A stretch of 24,000 bases of DNA from Histophilus somni (GTDB taxonomy: Bacteria > Pseudomonadota > Gammaproteobacteria > Enterobacterales > Pasteurellaceae): contig NZ_JACHGQ010000001.1 in NCBI RefSeq assembly GCF_014202395.1, positions 240,311-264,310 on the forward strand, given 5' to 3'. The translations under genes and the position numbers were made by a program. The first letter of the stretch is position 1. Each line of letters starts with the position of its first letter. Below, piece after piece: positions 1,492 through 19,370 of this stretch. The notes beneath the pieces are model-generated. The model saw only the letters and a list, made by a program, of their open reading frames with translations, was not told the DNA's origin and did not search any database.

Positions 1492-3960
1492 ATGAAAACA
1501 CAAAATAAAGTTAATACAAGTCGCCGTGATTTTTTAAAAAATTCATCATTAGGCGTGGCTGGCGTATCTCTAAGTGGCGGTGTTGTCGGAACATTAGCTT
1601 CGAAAGCTGTGGCGGCTGAACAACATACCGTTGTAACAGCTGCTCATTGGGGGGCTTTAGGTGTAGTTGTAGAAAATGGCAAGGTAGTTAAATCAGGATC
1701 TGCAATGCCAATTTCAGTCGAAAATGAATTACAAAGCGTAGTAGCTGACCAACTTTATAGTGAAACAAGGGTAAAATATCCAATGGTTCGTAAAGGATTT
1801 TTGGAGGGTAATAAAGATACCAGTTTGCGTGGACGTGATGAATGGGTTCGTGTTTCTTGGGATAAAGCCTTTGATTTAGTTGCAGGTGAAATGAAACGTG
1901 TTCGTGATGCTTATGGTGCAGGCAGTATTTTTGCCGGTTCTTATGGCTGGTATAGTTCAGGTGCATTACATGCCAGTCGTACCTTGTTACAGCGTTACAT
2001 GAATGTTACCGGTGGATTTGTCGGAGTCAAAGGGGACTATTCAACAGGTGCGGCACAAGTAATTATGCCTCATGTATTAGGTACAATTGAAGTTTATGAA
2101 CAACAAACCAGCTGGGAAACCGTTTTAGAAAGTTCAGATATTGTTGTGTTATGGGCGGCTAATCCTCTTACGACTTTGCGAATTGCATGGACTTCTACCG
2201 ATCAACAAGGTATTGAATATTTCAAAAAATTGAAAGAAAGCGGTAAACGTATTATTTGTATCGATCCGGTTAGAAGTGAAAGCTGTGAATTCTTAAATGC
2301 AGAATGGTTACCTGTGCATACAGGCACCGATGTTCCTTTAATGTTGGGGATTGCACATACGTTGGTTACTACAGATAAACATGATAAGGCATTCTTGAAA
2401 AAATACACTACTGGCTATGATAAATTTGAACAATATTTATTAGGAAAAACTGACGGTCAACCGAAAGACGCAAATTGGGCAAGCAAAATTTGTGGGTTAC
2501 CTGCAGATATCATCAAACAGTTAGCAGCTGATTTTTCGTCAAAACGTACTATGTTAATGGGCGGTTGGGGTATGCAACGTCAACGCCATGGTGAACAAAC
2601 TCACTGGACATTAGTTACTTTAGCGGCGATGCTGGGACAAATTGGGTTACCTGGAGGCGGATTTGGTTTCAGTTATCATTATTCTAATGGTGGTGCACCT
2701 TCCGCAGTCGGTGGTATTATTGGTTCAATTACAGCTAATCCATCAGTACAAGCCGGAGAAAAAACATGGCTGGATGATACATCAAAATTCTCTTTCCCAT
2801 TAGCACGTATTGCTGATGTATTGCTGAATCCTGGAAAAACAATTGATTATAATGGCTCTAAAGTGACCTATCCTGACATTAAGTTAATTTATTGGGCGGG
2901 TGGTAATCCTTTCGTTCATCACCAAGATACAAATACATTAGTGAAAGCATGGCAAAAACCTGAAACTGTTATTGTCAATGAAGTTAACTGGACACCGACT
3001 GCTCGCATGGCGGATATTGTATTACCAGCCACAACGAGCTATGAACGTAACGACTTAACTATGTCCGGTGATTATGCCATGATGAATATTTTTCCAATGA
3101 AACAAGTTGTCCCTCCACAATTTGAAGCGAAAAATGACTATGATATTTTTGCAGAATTAGCCAAACGTGCAGGAGTAGAAGACAAATTTACTGAAGGAAA
3201 AACGGAAATGGAATGGTTGCAAGATTTTTACAACGTGGCATTTAATGCAGCACGTAAAAATCGTGTACTTATGCCGAAATTTGAAAAATTCTGGCAAGAA
3301 AATAAACCTGTTAACTTTAAACCAACTGAAAAATCAAAAAAATGGGTACGTTACGAAGCATTCCGCAATGATCCTTTACTGAATCCACTTGGTACACCAT
3401 CAGGAAAAATTGAAATTTACTCTGATGTTGTCGCAAAAATGAATTATGATGATTGTAAAGGTCATCCATATTGGTTTGTTCCTGAAGAATTTGCAGGTAA
3501 TACAACGACGGAAGCCCCTTTAGCATTAGTTACACCACATCCTTACTATCGCTTACACAGTCAATTGGCTCACACATCATTACGGAAAAAATATGCAGTA
3601 AACGATCGTGAACCTGTGCTAATTCATAAAGAAGATGCAATGGCTCGTGGCATCATGGATGGTGATATTGTTCGTATTTTCAACAAAAGAGGACAAGTAT
3701 TGGCAGGTGCGGTAGTTACTGAAGGAATTATTAAAGGTACGGTCGCATTACATGAGGGGGCTTGGTATGATCCGGCTGATTTAGGTCAATCAGAACAACC
3801 TTTATGTAAAAATGGTTGTGCCAACGTACTGACACGTGATGAAGGTACTTCAAAATTAGCACAAGGTAATTCCCCGAATACATGTATTGTTCAAGTGGAA
3901 AAATACACAGAAACTGCACCGAAAGTGACGGTATTTGACCAACCGAAACAGTCTGTGTAG
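1492..3960 (+). CDS. torZ: Periplasmic molybdopterin (bis-MGD) S-/N-oxide reductase, DMSO-reductase family (TorZ/BisZ; the Haemophilus orthologue is described as methionine sulfoxide reductase MtsZ)
   Basis: 822 aa. Twin-arginine signal SRRDFLKNSS...AVA. No N-terminal Fe-S Cys cluster. GDYSTGAAQ segment (Ser Mo-ligand context of TorA/DorA-type enzymes). Paired with a TorY-type cytochrome. SD GAGG lies 6-9 nt upstream of the ATG. Confidence 0.93.
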   Translation: MKTQNKVNTSRRDFLKNSSLGVAGVSLSGGVVGTLASKAVAAEQHTVVTAAHWGALGVVVENGKVVKSGSAMPISVENELQSVVADQLYSETRVKYPMVRKGFLEGNKDTSLRGRDEWVRVSWDKAFDLVAGEMKRVRDAYGAGSIFAGSYGWYSSGALHASRTLLQRYMNVTGGFVGVKGDYSTGAAQVIMPHVLGTIEVYEQQTSWETVLESSDIVVLWAANPLTTLRIAWTSTDQQGIEYFKKLKESGKRIICIDPVRSESCEFLNAEWLPVHTGTDVPLMLGIAHTLVTTDKHDKAFLKKYTTGYDKFEQYLLGKTDGQPKDANWASKICGLPADIIKQLAADFSSKRTMLMGGWGMQRQRHGEQTHWTLVTLAAMLGQIGLPGGGFGFSYHYSNGGAPSAVGGIIGSITANPSVQAGEKTWLDDTSKFSFPLARIADVLLNPGKTIDYNGSKVTYPDIKLIYWAGGNPFVHHQDTNTLVKAWQKPETVIVNEVNWTPTARMADIVLPATTSYERNDLTMSGDYAMMNIFPMKQVVPPQFEAKNDYDIFAELAKRAGVEDKFTEGKTEMEWLQDFYNVAFNAARKNRVLMPKFEKFWQENKPVNFKPTEKSKKWVRYEAFRNDPLLNPLGTPSGKIEIYSDVVAKMNYDDCKGHPYWFVPEEFAGNTTTEAPLALVTPHPYYRLHSQLAHTSLRKKYAVNDREPVLIHKEDAMARGIMDGDIVRIFNKRGQVLAGAVVTEGIIKGTVALHEGAWYDPADLGQSEQPLCKNGCANVLTRDEGTSKLAQGNSPNTCIVQVEKYTETAPKVTVFDQPKQSV

Positions 3961-8699: not shown

Positions 8700-8786
8700 A
8701 TGGTAAATGTTTTATCACCAAATCAAGTTTGGATACTTGTAGATCCAAAGCTATCCCTGTATTTTCCCATAACTCCTCAATCCTAA
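8700..8786 (+). CDS. tnaC: TnaC-like tryptophan-sensing leader peptide of the tna operon (28 codons; absent from the ORF track)
   Basis: ATG 8700 with SD AAGGGA about 6 nt upstream. Peptide MVNVLSPNQVWILVDPKLSLYFPITPQS. W11, D15 and P23 reproduce the spacing of the essential E. coli TnaC residues W12, D16 and P24. Ends 50 nt before tnaA. Confidence 0.7.
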   Translation: MVNVLSPNQVWILVDPKLSLYFPITPQS

Positions 8787-8836: not shown

Positions 8837-10252
8837 ATGGAAAATTTCGAACATTTACCAGAACCGTTCCGTATTCGTGTTATTGAACCTGTCAAACGTA
8901 CAACTCGTGCCTATCGTGATGAATCTATCTTAAAAGCAGGCATGAATCTATTTTTATTAGACAGTGAAGATATTTTTATTGATCTATTAACTGATAGTGG
9001 TACAGGTGCCGTTACTCAAGATATGCAGGCTGCCATGCTAAGAGGTGATGAAGCTTATAGCGGAAGTCGCAGTTACTATGCTCTTGCCAATGCAGTGAAA
9101 GAAATCTTTGGTTATGAATACACAATTCCAACCCATCAAGGTCGTGGTGCAGAACAAATTTATATTCCTGTCTTGATCAAAAAACGTGAGCAAGAAAAAG
9201 GGTTGGATAGAAATAAAATGGTTGTTTTCTCTAACTATTTTTTTGACACTACTCAAGGTCATAGCCAATTAAATGGTGCAACTGTACGTAATGTCTATAT
9301 AAAAGAAGCTTTTGACACAGATGTAGATCATGATTTCAAAGGTAATTTTGATTTAGAAAAACTGGAACAAGGTATTTTAGAAGTTGGAGCAAATAATGTT
9401 CCTTACATTGTATGTACTATTACCTGTAATTCTGCCGGTGGACAACCGGTATCTCTTGCCAATATGAAAGCCATGTACCAAATTGCACGTAAATATGATA
9501 TTCCTGTGATTATGGATTCGGCTCGCTTCGCTGAAAATGCCTACTTTATTCAACAACGTGAAGCAGAATACAAAGATTGGACTATTGAACAAATTACTTA
9601 CGAAAGCTATAAATATGCAGATGCCTTGGCTATGTCTGCAAAAAAAGATGCAATGGTACCTATGGGAGGACTACTCTGCTTCAAAGATAATTCAATGGAA
9701 GATGTTTACAACGAGTGTCGTACACTTTGTGTTGTACAAGAAGGTTTCCCTACCTATGGTGGTCTAGAAGGTGGTGCAATGGAACGCCTAGCTGTAGGTT
9801 TACGTGATGGTATGCGTCAAGATTGGTTAGCTTATCGTATTAGCCAAATTGAATACCTTGTACAAGGTTTAGAAAAGATCGGTGTTGTTTGTCAACAACC
9901 CGGTGGACATGCCGCCTTTGTGGATGCAGGCAAATTATTACCACATATCCCAGCAGAACAATTCCCAGCTCAGGCTCTTGCTTGTGAATTATATAAAGTA
10001 GCAGGTATTCGATCCGTAGAAATCGGTTCTCTCCTATTAGGACGAGATCCGAAAACAGGTCAACAATTACCTTGCCCGGCTGAATTGTTACGTTTAACTA
10101 TTCCTCGTGCGACCTACACTCAAACACATATGGACTTCATCATTGAAGCATTCAAACAAGTGAAAGAGAATGCAAATAATATCAAAGGGTTAGATTTTAC
10201 TTATGAACCTAAAGTACTGCGTCATTTCACCGCTCGATTAAAAGAGATTTAA
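8837..10252 (+). CDS. tnaA: Tryptophanase (tryptophan indole-lyase, PLP-dependent)
   Basis: 471 aa. Long near-identical runs to recalled E. coli TnaA ([54 protein letters not shown] with the PLP lysine, [23 protein letters not shown]). SD GAGGA at 8825-8829. Confidence 0.98.
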
Positions 10253-10258
10253 TTTTGG

Positions 10259-10293
10259 CACCGCACTTTTAACAAAAAGTGCGGTGTTTTTTT
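10259..10293 (+). terminator. Strong USS-pair hairpin terminator between tnaA and tnaB
   Basis: CACCGCACTTTT-aaca-AAAAGTGCGGTG, a perfect 12-bp stem (10259-10286), followed by T7 (10287-10293). Built from an inverted pair of perfect USS 9-mers. Confidence 0.8.
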
Positions 10294-10317
10294 ATAGTTT
10301 TCAAAAGGAGCTATATT

Positions 10318-11547
10318 ATGCAAAAATCACCTTCTATTTTCGGTGGCGCTTGCATTATTGCGAGTGTCTGTGTCGGTGCCGGAATGTTAGGCTTACCTAC
10401 ATCTGGTGCGGGAGCTTGGACTATTTGGTCTGTCCTCACCATTGGATTTACGATGACTTGCATGACGTTATCCGGTTGGTTATTACTTGAGGCTTATAAA
10501 CATTTTGATTTACGAGCTTCTTTTAATACAGTCACCAAAAGCCTATTAGGTAATACTGTCAACATCATCAACAATTTATCCGTTTATTTTGTTGGAGGTA
10601 TTTTACTGTACGCTTATACTACAGCATCAGGTGGCATCCTAAGTGGATTAACAAGTGAAATGTTCAACATTGACTCTCGAGTTTGGTCAATTATCTTCGT
10701 TTTGATATTCTCTTTCTTTGTTTGGCATTCTACTCGCATTGTCGATCGCATTTCCGTTATATTAATTATTTTTATGGCAACCTCCTTTGTGCTTAGTGTA
10801 TTTGGCTTAACTAAAAATATTGACTTAGCCATTTTATTTAATACAAATACCGGCTCAGATAATAACTATGTCATATACACAATGGGTTTATTACCCGTTG
10901 CATTAACATCTTTCGGTTATCACCACTCGGTTGCAACAATGCGTGCATACTATAAAAATGAATATAAAGCCAAATTAGCTATTTTAGGCGGAACAATAAT
11001 TGCCCTTACACTCTATTTACTATGGGTCATTTCCATTTTTGGTAATCTGCCACGAAATCAATTTGCACCAATTATTGCCAGTGATGGCAATTTAGATGTG
11101 TTACTCAAAGCTTTGGGAAATGTAATTGAATCTGCATCGGTTAAACAAGCTATTAATGCTTTTTCCATTGCTGCAATTCTATCCTCTTTCATTGGTGTAG
11201 GTTTAGGTGTATTTGACTTCTTGGCTGACTTATTTAAATTTGATGACAACAAAATAGGGAGAACAAAATCTTGGGCAGTAACTTTCCTTCCTCCATTAAT
11301 ATTATCAGTTGCTTTCCCATTAGGTTTTTTGAAAGCTATCGGTTATGCAGGTGCGGTGGCAACAATTTGGGCTTGTATTATCCCTGCATTATTGGCTTAC
11401 AAATCACGTCAATTACCTAATGGTAAACAAGGATTTATGGTTGCAGGCGGAAACGTCACTATTCTACTGGTTATTCTATTTGGTATTGTTACCGCACTTT
11501 TCCATTTTCTATCGATGTTTAACATATTACCCTCTTTCAAAGGATAA
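10318..11547 (+). CDS. tnaB: Tryptophan-specific permease of the hydroxy/aromatic amino acid permease (HAAAP) family (TnaB/Mtr-like)
   Basis: About 409 aa polytopic membrane protein with the Mtr/TnaB/TyrP-type N-terminus (PS.FGGA.IIA..CVGAGMLGLP). Directly downstream of tnaA. I start at ATG 10318, which follows SD AAGGAG, not at the track GTG 10279, which lies inside the terminator. Confidence 0.9.
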   Translation: MQKSPSIFGGACIIASVCVGAGMLGLPTSGAGAWTIWSVLTIGFTMTCMTLSGWLLLEAYKHFDLRASFNTVTKSLLGNTVNIINNLSVYFVGGILLYAYTTASGGILSGLTSEMFNIDSRVWSIIFVLIFSFFVWHSTRIVDRISVILIIFMATSFVLSVFGLTKNIDLAILFNTNTGSDNNYVIYTMGLLPVALTSFGYHHSVATMRAYYKNEYKAKLAILGGTIIALTLYLLWVISIFGNLPRNQFAPIIASDGNLDVLLKALGNVIESASVKQAINAFSIAAILSSFIGVGLGVFDFLADLFKFDDNKIGRTKSWAVTFLPPLILSVAFPLGFLKAIGYAGAVATIWACIIPALLAYKSRQLPNGKQGFMVAGGNVTILLVILFGIVTALFHFLSMFNILPSFKG

Positions 11548-11878: not shown

Positions 11879-11911
11879 ATTAACCATTATTTATTCATGG
11901 AGAAACTTAAA

Positions 11912-12898
11912 ATGAAAAAACTTTACATCAGCCCTGCAATATTAAATGCTCCTTGCCCTTGGTGTTCTGAATTAGAAAACTTACGTGAACTTTACGCCTG
12001 TGAATATACAGGTGCGGTTACAACCCGCACTTCTATGCTTGAACCTTATCCACACGATTGGGCAAAAAACCAATATGTATTATTTGATTCAGCCTCACAA
12101 CAAGCCGCCGGCGTCAATACAGCAAATGCTACTCTACAACAAACTACCAGCTTAAATACAATTGGACTTAGTCCCAATAATTTAGCGACTACCATTCGCT
12201 TTGTTCGTACTATCTCCGATGAATTAAAGACTATTTCCAACAAGCCTTTCATTATTTCCGTGTTTGGTTCACCTGAAGAAGTGGGAGAATGCTATGAGCA
12301 AATCGTGGCTCTGCAAACAGAAGTGAAGATGCCCTTAGCAATGGAAATCAATATTTCTTGCCCCAATATGCCCGGAGAAATTTCGCCTGCCTATGCCGCA
12401 GAAGAGTTATTACCTTATTTAAATGCGTTACAAACCACTTTAGCCAAGTTAAGTCTAGGGGAAGAGGCTTTACCGATTGGCATTAAAATTCCACCATTTA
12501 CCTATCAAAACCAATATGATGAATTAATTAATGGACTATTAAAATCGCTAACAGAAAATAAAACACTACCGATTTCCTTTATTACTTCTACTAATACGCT
12601 TGGCTCTTCATTAGTGATGCAAGAGGGGAAATCCATATTAAATTCTGAAACAGGAACAGGTATTGGAGGACTGGCAGGAACAGCAATTCACGCATTATCA
12701 TTAGGCAATGTCTATACTCTGCGTCAAATGCTGGATAAAGAACCAAAATTAAAAGACGTACAGATTATTGGTGTGGGCGGTGTTAATGACAAAGCCGGTT
12801 TTGAACGAATGAAAACCGCTGGAGCGGATTTCGTTGGGTTAGCCACCGCACTAGGAGTCAAAGGGATTCAGATTTTTGCAGAGATTTTGGAAGAATAA
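11912..12898 (+). CDS. Divergent class-1 dihydroorotate dehydrogenase-fold FMN enzyme (PyrD-1A-like; substrate uncertain)
   Basis: Motifs align to class 1A DHOD: EINISCPNMPG (Cys base context), IGIKIPPF, TSTNTLGSS, GIGGLAG, IIGVGGV and GADFVGLATAL. I prefer ATG 11912 (GGAGA 8 nt upstream) over the track start at 11897. Confidence 0.75.
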   Translation: MKKLYISPAILNAPCPWCSELENLRELYACEYTGAVTTRTSMLEPYPHDWAKNQYVLFDSASQQAAGVNTANATLQQTTSLNTIGLSPNNLATTIRFVRTISDELKTISNKPFIISVFGSPEEVGECYEQIVALQTEVKMPLAMEINISCPNMPGEISPAYAAEELLPYLNALQTTLAKLSLGEEALPIGIKIPPFTYQNQYDELINGLLKSLTENKTLPISFITSTNTLGSSLVMQEGKSILNSETGTGIGGLAGTAIHALSLGNVYTLRQMLDKEPKLKDVQIIGVGGVNDKAGFERMKTAGADFVGLATALGVKGIQIFAEILEE

Positions 12899-13034
12899 CG
12901 CTTGCAAGTAAAGAAATTTGACGTATGTTAGATTAGTGATTTAAGATTATTGCTATGCTTTTTATCGATTATTCATTTTCAGGAAATCATCATAGCTTCT
13001 CGCTTTCTACATAACCCAAAATTTCCCAATCCAA

Positions 13035-13069
13035 CCCGCACTTTTTGTTAAAAAGTGCGGGCTTTTTTT
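13035..13069 (+). terminator. Rho-independent terminator (imperfect USS pair), 137 nt downstream of the DHOD-like stop
   Basis: CCCGCACTTTTT-gtt-AAAAAGTGCGGG, a 12-bp stem (13035-13061), followed by C then T7. Confidence 0.8.
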
Positions 13070-13157
13070 ACTTTTTTACTTGTACTTCTCACTTTTTTGC
13101 TTCTTATCTTCATTTTTTACTTTTTTTATCTTTTTTCACATTTTTTTCATTTTTTTA
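13061..13157 (+). repeat. Array of helically phased T6-T7 tracts (about 10-bp period) immediately upstream of the -35 hexamer; predicted intrinsically curved DNA or UP-like element
   Basis: T-runs start at 13063, 13072, 13093, 13113, 13121, 13131, 13141 and 13151. The last five are consecutive at 8-10 bp spacing. Confidence 0.7.
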
Positions 13158-13185
13158 TTGACAGTCCCCCCCCCCCGCTTATAAT
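13158..13185 (+). promoter_or_regulatory. Consensus sigma70 promoter with a poly-C spacer, upstream of the adhesin gene
   Basis: TTGACA (13158-13163), then the 16-nt spacer GT-C11-GCT, then TATAAT (13180-13185). Both hexamers match consensus perfectly. Confidence 0.7.
13166..13176 (+). repeat. Homopolymeric C11 tract (simple sequence repeat prone to slipped-strand mispairing)
   Basis: Counted directly: 5 C at the end of block 13161-13170 plus 6 C at the start of block 13171-13180. It is the longest homopolymer I found in the window. Confidence 0.95.
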
Positions 13186-13338
13186 CCACCGCCCTTTATG
13201 AAATAACCCTTAAAGGGTTTTTGTTGTACATAGGATTTTAAGATTTATACATCTTAGTGGTTTTTCATCATCAATCGTCTCATTTGTCGCTTTTTTCTCA
13301 TGAGACATTATTTTTTTATTAGAGGATTTTTTTTCAAA

Positions 13339-14436
13339 ATGAACATGAACAAAACTTTTTTCCCTTTATCTTTAACTGCGGTAATGATTTTTAGTGCGAA
13401 TGTGGCTATGGCTCAGGCAGGTAAGAATTATTTTGCTTTTGAGGCGGATGGTACTACAGCTACTGGTACCGCCGATACTTATGAAGATAATATCGCCGTA
13501 GGAAAAGGTGCAAAAATCGAAAAAGTAGGTGGTAAGGCTAAAGCGGCTATCGCTGTTGGCTTTCAAGCCATAGCAACCGGCAATCAATCTATCGCTGCTG
13601 GTTACAAAGCAAAAACAACCGCTCAATCAGGAACGGCTGTAGGGGGAGAAACAGAGGCAGGCAATTATGCTTCTGCTTTTGGTCAAGGTGCTAAAGCAAA
13701 AAATTATCTCTCCACAGCGATTGGTTGGGGTACAAAATCACTAGCAGATCGTGCAGTAGCGGTTGGTTCTGGAGCTGAAGCTTCGGGCTTAAAATCTGTA
13801 AGTATTGGTAATACTGCCAAAGCATTAGCAGAACATGCTGTGGCAATAGGTAATGTAACTCATAATCACGGCAAAGAGTCTGTTGCTATAGGTTATAATA
13901 ACACTATAGAAGCAAGCTCTAACAATACTGTTGCTGTAGGGAATAACATTAAAACCACCGCTACAAACTCCGTCTTCCTCGGTGATTCTTCTGCTTATGT
14001 AGAAAAAGGCGAGACAACAGGCGGTATCGGTAAAGTCGACGGTAATTACGCCGGTGTTGATGCGAAAGGTGTCGTTTCCGTGGGAAACAAAGGCAATGAA
14101 CGTCGTATTCAAAATGTTGCTGCCGGTTTGCTTTCTCATCGCTCAACCGATGCGGTAAACGGTAGCCAATTACACGCAACCAACCAACGTGTTGAAGAGG
14201 TCAACAAAGACGCAAAAGCCGGTATCGCCGCCGCTATGGCTTTCAAAGAAGTCCCTTTCGTCCCGGGAAAATGGTCTTACGCCGCCGGTGCCGCTCGTTA
14301 TAGCAGCGAAAGTGCGGTCTCTTTAAACCTCGGTAGAACTTCCGCAAACGGAAAATATGCCATATCCGGCGGCATTTCTTCTGATAGTAGAGGCCGAGTT
14401 GGTTTCCGTGTCGGCATCAGCGGCGTATTTAACTAA
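13339..14436 (+). CDS. Trimeric autotransporter adhesin (YadA/Hia-like, short form, 365 aa)
   Basis: Sec signal peptide MNMNKTFFPLSLTAVMIFSANVAMA-QA. Repeated YadA-head motifs (AIAVG, SIAAG, AVAVGSGA, SVSIGN, AVAIGN, SVAIG, TVAVGN, SVFLGDSS). Neck/stalk signature RRIQNVAAG....STDAVNGSQL. C-terminal YadA-type 4-strand beta-barrel anchor (AGIAAAMAF...GFRVGISGVFN). I start at ATG 13339 rather than the track start at 13300. Confidence 0.9.
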   Translation: MNMNKTFFPLSLTAVMIFSANVAMAQAGKNYFAFEADGTTATGTADTYEDNIAVGKGAKIEKVGGKAKAAIAVGFQAIATGNQSIAAGYKAKTTAQSGTAVGGETEAGNYASAFGQGAKAKNYLSTAIGWGTKSLADRAVAVGSGAEASGLKSVSIGNTAKALAEHAVAIGNVTHNHGKESVAIGYNNTIEASSNNTVAVGNNIKTTATNSVFLGDSSAYVEKGETTGGIGKVDGNYAGVDAKGVVSVGNKGNERRIQNVAAGLLSHRSTDAVNGSQLHATNQRVEEVNKDAKAGIAAAMAFKEVPFVPGKWSYAAGAARYSSESAVSLNLGRTSANGKYAISGGISSDSRGRVGFRVGISGVFN

Positions 14437-14452
14437 TTCATCATATAAAACT

Positions 14453-14489
14453 AAACCGGCGATAGCAGTGTTGTTATCGCCGGTTTTTT
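14453..14489. terminator. Bidirectional terminator shared by the convergent adhesin and permease genes
   Basis: AAACCGGCGATA-(10 nt)-TATCGCCGGTTT, a 12-bp stem (14453-14486), with an A-rich 5' flank and a T-rich 3' flank. Confidence 0.8.
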
Positions 14490-14542
14490 GTAGATACTTT
14501 CGAGAGCTGACTAAGCTTACCCACCTAACATTTTATATACAA

Positions 14543-15856
14543 TTAAATTGCCCAACCGCCAATATAAAAAGCAACCAAAACAATGGCAATGATGACTGTA
14601 CCTACATTAAGTTTTTTCCAATCACCACAAACTAAACGACCGATAACTAAAGTTGCAAAACCTAGCATAATTCCGGTTACAATATTTGCAGTTAGTACAA
14701 TAAATACGCCACAAACCAGTCCGCTCATTGCTCCAACAAAATCGCTAAAATCAAGTTTGCTGACATTGCTTAACATTAATAATCCTACGTACATTAACGC
14801 AGGTGCAGTTGCATAGTTTGGCACCAAACTTGCTAATGGCTGGAAAAATAGCATTAATAAAAACAGTATACCGACAACAATCGCTGTCATACCTGTTTTA
14901 CCCCCAGCAGCAGTTCCGGCGGCAGATTCAATATATACAGCGGCAGGTGCGGTACCAAGTGTCCCAGATAATAAGCTACTTACGGAATCCGCTGTTAATG
15001 CTTTGCCGCCATTGATAATTTGACCATCTTTATCTAATAAATTTGCTTGACCTGCAACTGCACGAATTGTCCCTGTTGCATCAAATACTGCGGTCATTAC
15101 TAAGGCAAAAACAACAGGTAAAATTGCCGGTTGTAATGCTCCCATAATATCCAATTCTAAAAATAAGGATTGTTCACCAAAAGTCGGTAATCTGAAAATT
15201 TCGCCTTTAAACTGTACATTTTGATCCCAAATAAGCCCTGCGATCGTAATTGCGATCATAACCCATAAGATCCCACCTTTGACTTGCATTTTTTCCAAGC
15301 CAATAATTACAGCAAGTCCAACCAAAGACATCAGCACAGAGAAAGACGTAAAATCACCAAACTTAACTAATAAGCCATTTTGATTGGCTACAATAATACC
15401 CACATTCGTTGTAGCGATAAGTAGCAAAAATAAACCGATACCAATACCTGCACCATGTGCAATACTCGACGGAAGATTACGTAAAATCCAAGAGCGAATA
15501 CCTGTTGCAGAAATTAAAGTAAAGACTATCCCCATAAGAAATACCGCACCTAATGCGACAGGAATACTCACACCTTGTCCCAACACTAAGCTAAATGCAG
15601 TAAAGGCGGTTAATGAAATAGCACAACCAATCGCCATCGGTGCATTTGCCCATAAGCCAATTAAAATTGAACCTAATCCTGCTACCAAACAAGTTGCTAT
15701 AAACACACTTTCTGCCGGAAATCCCGCTGCACTCAGCATATTCGGTACAACAATTACTGAATAAACCATAGCCAAGAAGGTTGTTAATCCGGCAATAATT
15801 TCTTGACGTACGTTAGAACCACGTTTCGTCAACTCAAAAGTTTTTTCTAAAGACAT
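14543..15856 (-). CDS. NCS2/AzgA-family purine permease; closest by recall to the guanine/hypoxanthine permeases GhxP/GhxQ (YjcD/YgfQ)
   Basis: 437 aa polytopic protein. The run [30 protein letters not shown]......[34 protein letters not shown] matches recalled E. coli GhxP. A PurR box lies upstream. I start at ATG 15856 (SD AGGGGA), not the track TTG 15874. Confidence 0.88.
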
Positions 15857-15922
15857 AGCGTCCCCTATAGGCAAATTAAAATGAATAAAAAAAGTTCGCG
15901 TATTTTACCTGAAACTTTCAAA

Positions 15923-19272: not shown

Positions 19273-19293
19273 CTTAGTTTATAAAATACGTTC

Positions 19294-19344
19294 AAAAGTG
19301 CGGTCATTTTTCAAATTTTTTCACTCTCAATACCGCACTTTTTT
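19294..19344 (+). terminator. USS inverted pair forming a long-loop hairpin plus T-run between parE and parC (weak or partial terminator)
   Basis: AAAAGTGCGGT (19294-19304) and ACCGCACTTTT (19332-19342) give an 11-bp stem with a 27-nt loop, followed by further T. Confidence 0.4.
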
Positions 19345-19370
19345 ATCATTAAAATATAAAAGATAACATT

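Follow-up and report, generated by a model that had tools for sequence, protein, structure and literature searches.

The window, that is, the whole stretch of 24,000 nucleotides of Histophilus somni DNA analysed here, contains a gene for a DHOD-like protein (11897-12898) that precedes the promoter of a small adhesin gene. The elements in and around this promoter are as follows.

12986-13165, + strand: upstream 'module A', about 180 bp, ending at the -35 box plus GT; a near-identical copy lies at the OEP locus
13035-13069, + strand: intrinsic terminator of the DHOD-like gene, a 12-bp stem and then T7 (terminator scan)
13062-13157, + strand: array of nine or so T6-T7 tracts that abuts the -35 box
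13158-13163, + strand: -35 hexamer TTGACA, perfect consensus, unchanged in 18 of the 18 promoter copies examined
13164-13179, + strand: spacer of 16 bp, GT-C11-GCT (sequence and promoter scan)
13166-13176, + strand: poly-C tract, C11, uninterrupted, 11 of the 16 spacer positions
13164-13165 and 13177-13179, + strand: flanks of C11, GT and GCT respectively (sequence)
13180-13185, + strand: -10 hexamer TATAAT, perfect consensus; TAAAAT in the paralogs
13191-13224, + strand: predicted start of the transcript, carrying a small, stable hairpin and then U5 (terminator scan and folding)
13224-13229 and 13246-13251, + strand: TTGTAC-N16-TATACA, a weak alternative promoter candidate that fails the criteria of the consensus scan
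13321-13326, 13327-13334 and 13339-13341, + strand: Shine-Dalgarno sequence AGAGGA, T8 and ATG (sequence)
13339-14436, + strand: predicted gene for a YadA-type trimeric autotransporter adhesin of 365 aa (Pfam, NCBIfam, H. somni homologs and alignment)

The 333-aa product of the upstream gene has a DHO_dh Pfam match but falls far short of all the NCBIfam PyrD cutoffs (at best 107.6 bits against 301), and is a divergent DHOD-like oxidoreductase. The stem of the terminator behind this gene is an inverted pair of near-USS sequences (CCCGCACTT / AAGTGCGGG), with the near-copies at 13035-13061. This terminator is predicted to insulate the adhesin promoter from read-through, and because such a strong terminator closes off the upstream gene, the adhesin gene needs a promoter of its own. 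The T-tracts that follow are detected by TRF as arrays of period 8-9 at 13064-13157; their spacing is 8.5-10.5 bp among the last five and about 20 bp before them. The array is probably curved, UP-element-like A+T-rich DNA, the role being a predicted one. It lacks one ACTTTTTT unit in CP042993, and at the OEP locus its copy shows differences of single T's.

The adhesin gene starts 153 nt downstream of the poly-C promoter. The earlier note on this DNA had claimed it as a trimeric autotransporter adhesin gene, and three YadA Pfam domains above their gathering thresholds bear this out: PF03895 YadA_anchor (30.2 bits, cutoff 22.7, residues 309-361), PF05662 YadA_stalk (43.8 bits, cutoff 28.4) and PF05658 YadA_head (51.5 bits, cutoff 25, in three stretches). 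Among the NCBIfam models, those of the Ata, EmaA and YadA autotransporters are the most similar, with the C-terminal 87 residues aligning to the end of the Ata model. The N-terminus, MNMNKTFFPLSLTAVMIFSANVAMA-QA, as read by eye, is basic and hydrophobic, has an AxA layout and is a candidate signal peptide. By these similarities the product is a small trimeric autotransporter adhesin (type Vc, YadA family). Its head repeats are variable, and its stalk and anchor are near-invariant and common to the paralogs. Identical proteins are encoded on other H. somni chromosomes, for example CP018802, and gene callers in other genomes put the adhesin start at 13339. An in-frame ATG further upstream, at 13300, was rejected as the start because it has no ribosome-binding site and is not the ATG that the gene callers use. 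The T8 run between the ribosome-binding site and the ATG makes an unusually long spacing of 12 nt; it is not a second switch, since its length is the same in all nine assemblies compared. A convergent xanthine/uracil permease gene comes after the adhesin gene, so the promoter serves the adhesin gene alone. H. somni carries 16 YadA-family genes per genome, in a report that discusses repeats only in glycosyltransferase genes (PMC3339403), and unnamed YadA-domain proteins have been found by proteomics in its outer-membrane vesicles (PMC12077179).

The promoter string is ...TTTTTTTA TTGACA GT CCCCCCCCCCC GCT TATAAT CCACC..., and the hexamers, coordinates, 16-nt spacer and 11-C run that the earlier note had described all read in the sequence as it had them. 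In a consensus scan of 12000-14500, TTGACA-N16-TATAAT is the sole 12/12 promoter match; over the whole window it is the sole match with one mismatch or none at spacer 16, for which shuffled sequences average 0.37. An extended -10 motif is ruled out, as TATAAT is preceded by G-C-T rather than TGn. No homopolymer in the window other than the C11 run exceeds 8 nt, as had been claimed and as the homopolymer count confirms, and the runner-up is the T8 at 13327-13334. Because about 4e-4 runs of C or G of 11 nt or more are expected in the window at its composition (37.8% G+C), the tract is not a product of chance.

Sigma-70 promoters have an optimum spacer of 17 bp, with a steep fall in activity beyond +/-1 bp. 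We consider it probable that the C-tract is a slippage-driven spacer switch that sets transcription of the adhesin gene, and does so separately for each paralog. Slipped-strand mispairing in replication would lead to the gain or loss of C's, and each change in tract length would alter the distance and the helical phase between the hexamers and thereby the rate of transcription. The spacer at the window locus equals n+5, so that C12 gives 17 bp, as had been calculated correctly before. Transcription would then be maximal at C12, intermediate at C11 and C13, and low or off at C10 and below or C14 and above. Since both hexamers are perfect and the upstream region is A+T-rich, spacer length should dominate the output. 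Paralogs with divergent heads and a common anchor would switch singly and give a shifting mix of adhesin variants, as in a contingency gene family; each paralog has its own tract, so cells could express different subsets of adhesins. That the promoter fires, that its output follows spacer length and that switching is frequent and reversible we infer from the sequences.

Tract length at the window locus was compared in nine assemblies, with the copies in other assemblies fetched via exact-protein matches; about 20 further genomes with the exact adhesin were left out of this distribution. The lengths are as follows.

C11, 16-bp spacer: the window and CP145800
C10, 15-bp spacer: CP018802, CP174270, JAHSQI01 and CP066558
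C9, 14-bp spacer: CP042993, SSCQ01 and CP066565

An invariant tract had been named beforehand as a refuting outcome; the comparison found C9, C10 and C11. Over 20.66 kb, two SNPs and one indel separate the window from CP018802, and this indel is one C of the tract. Among 14 homopolymers within 1.5 kb around the promoter, the poly-C tract is the only one that varies in length in the nine assemblies, the 13 others (6-8 nt) being constant.

The same promoter core also precedes other adhesin genes of the species. A protein search returned about 30 H. somni proteins of about 290-420 aa that are 53-67% identical to the window adhesin, plus one 97% allele. In an alignment of 21 sequences, the head varies, whereas the putative signal peptide and the last ~155 residues are near-invariant. 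The core ATTGACAGT(A)-Cn-GCTTAWAAT is present upstream of small paralogous adhesin genes at no fewer than three further loci, and every fetched paralog locus has ATTGACAGT(A)-Cn-GCTTAAAAT upstream of its adhesin gene. The paralog tracts range from C8 to C21 (C8, C9, C10, C17 and C21), and the paralog spacer equals n+6. By locus, the tracts are as follows.

Opp-ABC locus: C10 in CP018802, C9 in CP066561, C8 in CP157211, and C9 with one extra flank base in CP174270
OEP locus (HSM_1212 in strain 2336): C9 in CP000947, C17 in CP157211, C21 in CP186878
tRNA locus with the permease at right: C9 in CP157211
tRNA locus with the FGGY kinase at right: C8 in LQGI01

At the OEP locus, one SNP in 5.17 kb and an indel of 8 C (C17 vs C9) are all that separates CP157211 from strain 2336. 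Both at the window locus and at the paralogs, the repeat is thus polymorphic in length between strains while its flanks stay constant, and the layout with the repeat inside the spacer (-35, Cn, -10) is identical in all 18 copies. These comparisons support the switch proposed in the earlier note, the effect on expression being a predicted one. The note had seen it as the switch of a single adhesin gene; the promoter is indeed there, but its core recurs throughout a gene family as a cassette.

The strain data also bear on a simpler reading, in which the promoter is real but fixed at a sub-optimal spacer, the length differences are sequencing or assembly error or neutral drift, and no switching takes place. 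Homopolymers of 9 nt or more are error-prone on long-read platforms, most of the differences at the window locus are only +/-1 nt, and two of the assemblies (CP066565 and CP145800) are noisy, with extra substitutions or frameshifted genes nearby. Some of the 1-nt differences between assemblies may therefore be artefacts, and a lone difference of this size is weak evidence. The overall pattern of variation is not. Across the nine assemblies, the T6-T8 tracts within 1.5 kb around the promoter do not vary, C10 is the length both in an Illumina-type draft (JAHSQI01) and in several finished genomes, others having C9 or C11, and the differences of 8 C and 12 C at a paralogous locus exceed consensus error. 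An uninterrupted C-run in every paralog, despite diverged flanks, would moreover be unexpected for a neutral sequence at 38% G+C. With this evidence, error or drift is an improbable account of the tract. Variation between strains is nevertheless a different matter from high-frequency switching.

Spacers over the 18 copies are 14 bp (five copies), 15 bp (seven), 16 bp (four), 23 bp and 27 bp (one each). In CP018802 the spacer is 15 bp at the window locus and 16 bp at the Opp locus; the four copies read in CP157211 have spacers of 14, 15, 15 and 23 bp and are predicted to be low or off. The 17-bp state is present in none of the 18 copies. The earlier statement that C12 would give the optimal 17 bp is therefore right in its arithmetic, but no sequenced strain carries that state. 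Its absence may reflect low or off states in isolates grown in the laboratory, with selection in culture against expression, or an optimum other than 17 bp, at odds with the E. coli rule.

When the upstream regions were aligned, they proved to be mosaics of two upstream modules and two leader modules, the modules of each kind being unrelated to each other, and the -35/tract/-10 core is the sole block common to all the regions aligned. Module A, for example, recurs before the OEP-locus adhesin gene of strain 2336 and others, where the leader is of the other type. The uninterrupted C-run in every copy, in an A+T-rich genome and with flanks that have diverged or been swapped, points to selection for the tract itself, and a core conserved across unrelated modules argues for selection on a tract-bearing promoter. 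The small adhesin paralogs also sit at synteny breakpoints, as seen when 11897-15874 of the window is compared with the fetched loci. Their left neighbours (DHOD-like, tRNA, Opp-ABC or OEP) are combined, by strain, with differing right neighbours (xanthine permease, FGGY kinase, ABC-F or IS1595/RluB-like), which suggests rearrangement of the chromosome via recombination between paralogs.

Tentatively, and at slightly less than even confidence, we propose that four or more chromosomal sites carry a portable adhesin cassette, in which independent slippage at each copy together with recombination and transformation between copies would produce combinatorial antigenic variation at the level of transcription, the copies doubling as rearrangement breakpoints. 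Its parts would be an A+T-rich upstream module, an unchanging consensus promoter with a poly-C rheostat as spacer, a leader with a hairpin and a U-run at its beginning, a head that is hypervariable, and a stalk and anchor that are near-invariant; the leader would often contain an uptake-signal-like sequence, and the stalk/anchor part a perfect uptake signal. The Hin-type uptake signal AAGTGCGGT, a 9-mer, occurs in 16 copies in the window against 0.13 expected. One copy of AAGTGCGGT lies at 14310-14318, within the adhesin gene, in the conserved part that encodes the anchor. Leaders of the paralogs carry TAGTGCGGT. With uptake signals in the terminator or in the paralog leaders on one side and in the anchor part on the other, the variable head region is bracketed.

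The cassette looks specific to H. somni within a limited sample of loci from other species. The promoter pattern gave no match in a species-representative genome collection that is without H. somni, and no poly-C or poly-G promoter was found upstream of trimeric autotransporter homologs at 80 loci of other species. The closest relative of the window adhesin in the species-representative collection, at 52% identity, is from Actinobacillus seminis. A C9 run about 650 nt upstream of the start of that homolog was rejected, as it lies in unrelated sequence and has no promoter hexamers. A metagenome scan with a relaxed pattern gave four matches, all due to chance, with interrupted C-runs on unrelated contigs.

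The region between promoter and gene offers a second alternative, which we regard as no less improbable than error or drift. By this account, the main control of the adhesin lies in a downstream promoter, such as the one at 13224-13251, or in attenuation or processing at the hairpin of the leader; the consensus promoter would give mostly short terminated transcripts, and the C-tract would be of minor importance. From the predicted start, placed from the position of the -10 box only, the 5' UTR is long, about 148 nt, and a hairpin and U-run follow just 3' of the predicted start in every family member. The hairpin of the window leader, which the earlier note had missed, is AACCCUUAAAGGGUU, or in extended form GCCCUUUA...UAAAGGGU; it looks like either an intrinsic terminator or a stabiliser of the 5' end. 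A folding energy of -9.1 kcal/mol (z = -2.8) was obtained for the segment 13191-13224. The paralog leaders have instead GGUAGG-loop-CCUACC and then UCUUUUU (fetched loci L010, at ~2883-2905, L009, L093, L095 and L100), a stem-loop that alone folds at about -9 to -10 kcal/mol and reaches -12.5 kcal/mol with extra flanking pairs in some constructs. Non-homologous hairpins at the same position suggest a conserved role, as attenuator, 5' stabiliser or processing site, and a hairpin and U-run about 15-30 nt past the predicted start could blunt the output of the promoter. This element is the main reason for keeping control in the leader as an alternative. The hairpins are nevertheless short (6-8 bp, about -9 to -12.5 kcal/mol with flanking pairs) and would be weak terminators. 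The downstream candidate TTGTAC-N16-TATACA, which is present in the sequence as the earlier note had it, is a poor promoter and is not conserved in the paralogs, whose leaders are non-homologous to the window at 13224-13251. The -35/tract/-10 core, in contrast, is the most conserved non-coding block of the family, and a leader element would add to an effect of spacer length rather than replace it. An Rfam search of the whole window gave nothing in the leader, and the H. somni RNA-seq map and Hfq-sRNA catalogue have no entry for the adhesin leaders. The sRNA HS118 maps 3' of HSM_1212, outside the leader of that gene.

Very improbable is a third reading, in which the core with its C-run is chiefly a recombination junction for the shuffling of adhesin cassettes and its hypermutability a by-product: the mosaic upstream and leader modules do switch at the core, the paralogs do sit at synteny breakpoints and USS or near-USS sequences do flank the variable head region, but recombination needs neither two consensus hexamers nor promoter spacing nor a sense orientation upstream of each gene, and the near-invariant 3' half of the genes offers far longer homology.

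A spacer switch of the kind preferred here has several known counterparts, and those that the earlier note had cited are real, namely the poly-C of opc (PMC3960869), the spacer tract of porA (PMC5320596) and the T(n) of Hia (PMC11475388). Carson et al. (2000), as cited in PMC5320596, have reported that a poly-C tract lies between the -35 and -10 of gonococcal and meningococcal fetA (frpB), ranges from C10 to C14 among strains and alters expression. The H. somni promoter is similar in that the C-run forms the spacer and varies in length by strain (C10-C14 in fetA, C8-C21 in H. somni), in that the spacing and facing of the hexamers are taken to set the level of transcription, and in that the product belongs to the outer membrane. 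Dependence of expression on the tract has been measured for fetA, whereas it is predicted for the H. somni adhesin; and unlike the latter, fetA encodes a siderophore receptor at a single locus in the Neisseriaceae. In Neisseria meningitidis, the adhesin gene opc has a poly-C promoter (Sarkari et al., 1994, cited in PMC3960869) and porA a poly-G spacer (van der Ende et al., 1995, cited in PMC5320596). Both share with H. somni a graded 'volume control' of transcription from a homopolymer in the promoter of a surface protein, an effect that is predicted for H. somni. Both are single-copy, and Opc and the porin are beta-barrel proteins, in contrast to the trimeric autotransporter of H. somni. Expression of opc is high at C12-13, intermediate at C11 or C14 and nil at C10 and below or C15 and above, a range that resembles the one predicted for the H. 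somni adhesin. The opc promoter is not known to have a good -35, whereas both hexamers of the H. somni promoter are perfect.

Promoter repeats have also been described for trimeric autotransporters, T(n) for Hia of NTHi and TAAA(n) for meningococcal NadA (PMC11475388). The TAAA repeat of NadA sits upstream of the -35 and acts with the NadR repressor, whereas the H. somni repeat lies within the spacer. Moraxella UspA1 has a poly-G in its 5' UTR. Hia, NadA and UspA1 are all trimeric autotransporters like the H. somni adhesin, Hia being also from the Pasteurellaceae, and all have a repeat in the promoter or leader and graded expression under immune and colonisation selection. Unlike in H. somni, none of them has a poly-C spacer and none shares its repeat with a set of paralogs. 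In this last respect the opa genes of Neisseria, a multigene family with CTCTT repeats in the ORF (PMC11475388), offer a likeness: they too are scattered paralogous adhesin genes, each with its own repeat, and they show the independent switching, antigenic variation and recombination between members that are proposed for the H. somni family. Switching of opa, however, is a translational frameshift in the signal-peptide region and strictly ON/OFF, whereas the H. somni repeat lies in the promoter and stepwise transcription is expected. If true, the cassette system would be a promoter-based counterpart of neisserial opa. In H. somni, lipooligosaccharide genes are the ones for which phase variation has been documented so far (PMC3339403, PMC3406970), and the reference list of PMC12077179 includes a report of a poly-G tract inside tbpA of its relative Histophilus ovis. 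Neither a poly-C promoter nor a phase-variable trimeric autotransporter is described for H. somni in the full-text literature covered, a scope outside which most subscription journals fall. The proposed switch is of a known mechanism class, and its sharing as a cassette by a paralog family is the added point.

H. somni is a cattle pathogen and a major agent of bovine respiratory disease, against which current vaccines work poorly. If the adhesin family switches independently, single adhesins would be unreliable as vaccine antigens. If the switch is true, isolates grown in the laboratory may under-report expression in the animal, as 18 of 18 copies are at non-optimal spacers, and tract lengths in genomes could predict the adhesin repertoire of each strain. 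The copies also form a natural series, with perfect hexamers and a varying spacer, that suits the testing of spacer-length rules for the RNA polymerase of Pasteurellaceae.

Some other features were observed outside the adhesin locus. In CP174270 (fetched locus L006, 15999-18339), genes for a DNA cytosine-methylase and an HNH-nuclease are inserted between parE and parC; this insertion is missing from the window (equivalent position ~19273-19370) and from CP018802. A Moco riboswitch (RF01055, 1257-1394, + strand), at 75.6 bits against a gathering threshold of 36, is the sole Rfam match in the window and sits between a gene for a NapC/NirT-type cytochrome (76-1224) and one for a molybdopterin oxidoreductase (1492-3960). 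A leader ORF of 28 codons, MVNVLSPNQVWILVDPKLSLYFPITPQS (8700-8786, + strand), lies 5' of tnaA (8837-10252) and the permease gene tnaB (10279-11547). E. coli TnaC has the residues W12-D16-P24. The leader ORF has W11-D15-P23, which matches this spacing, and probably encodes an attenuation peptide of the TnaC type.
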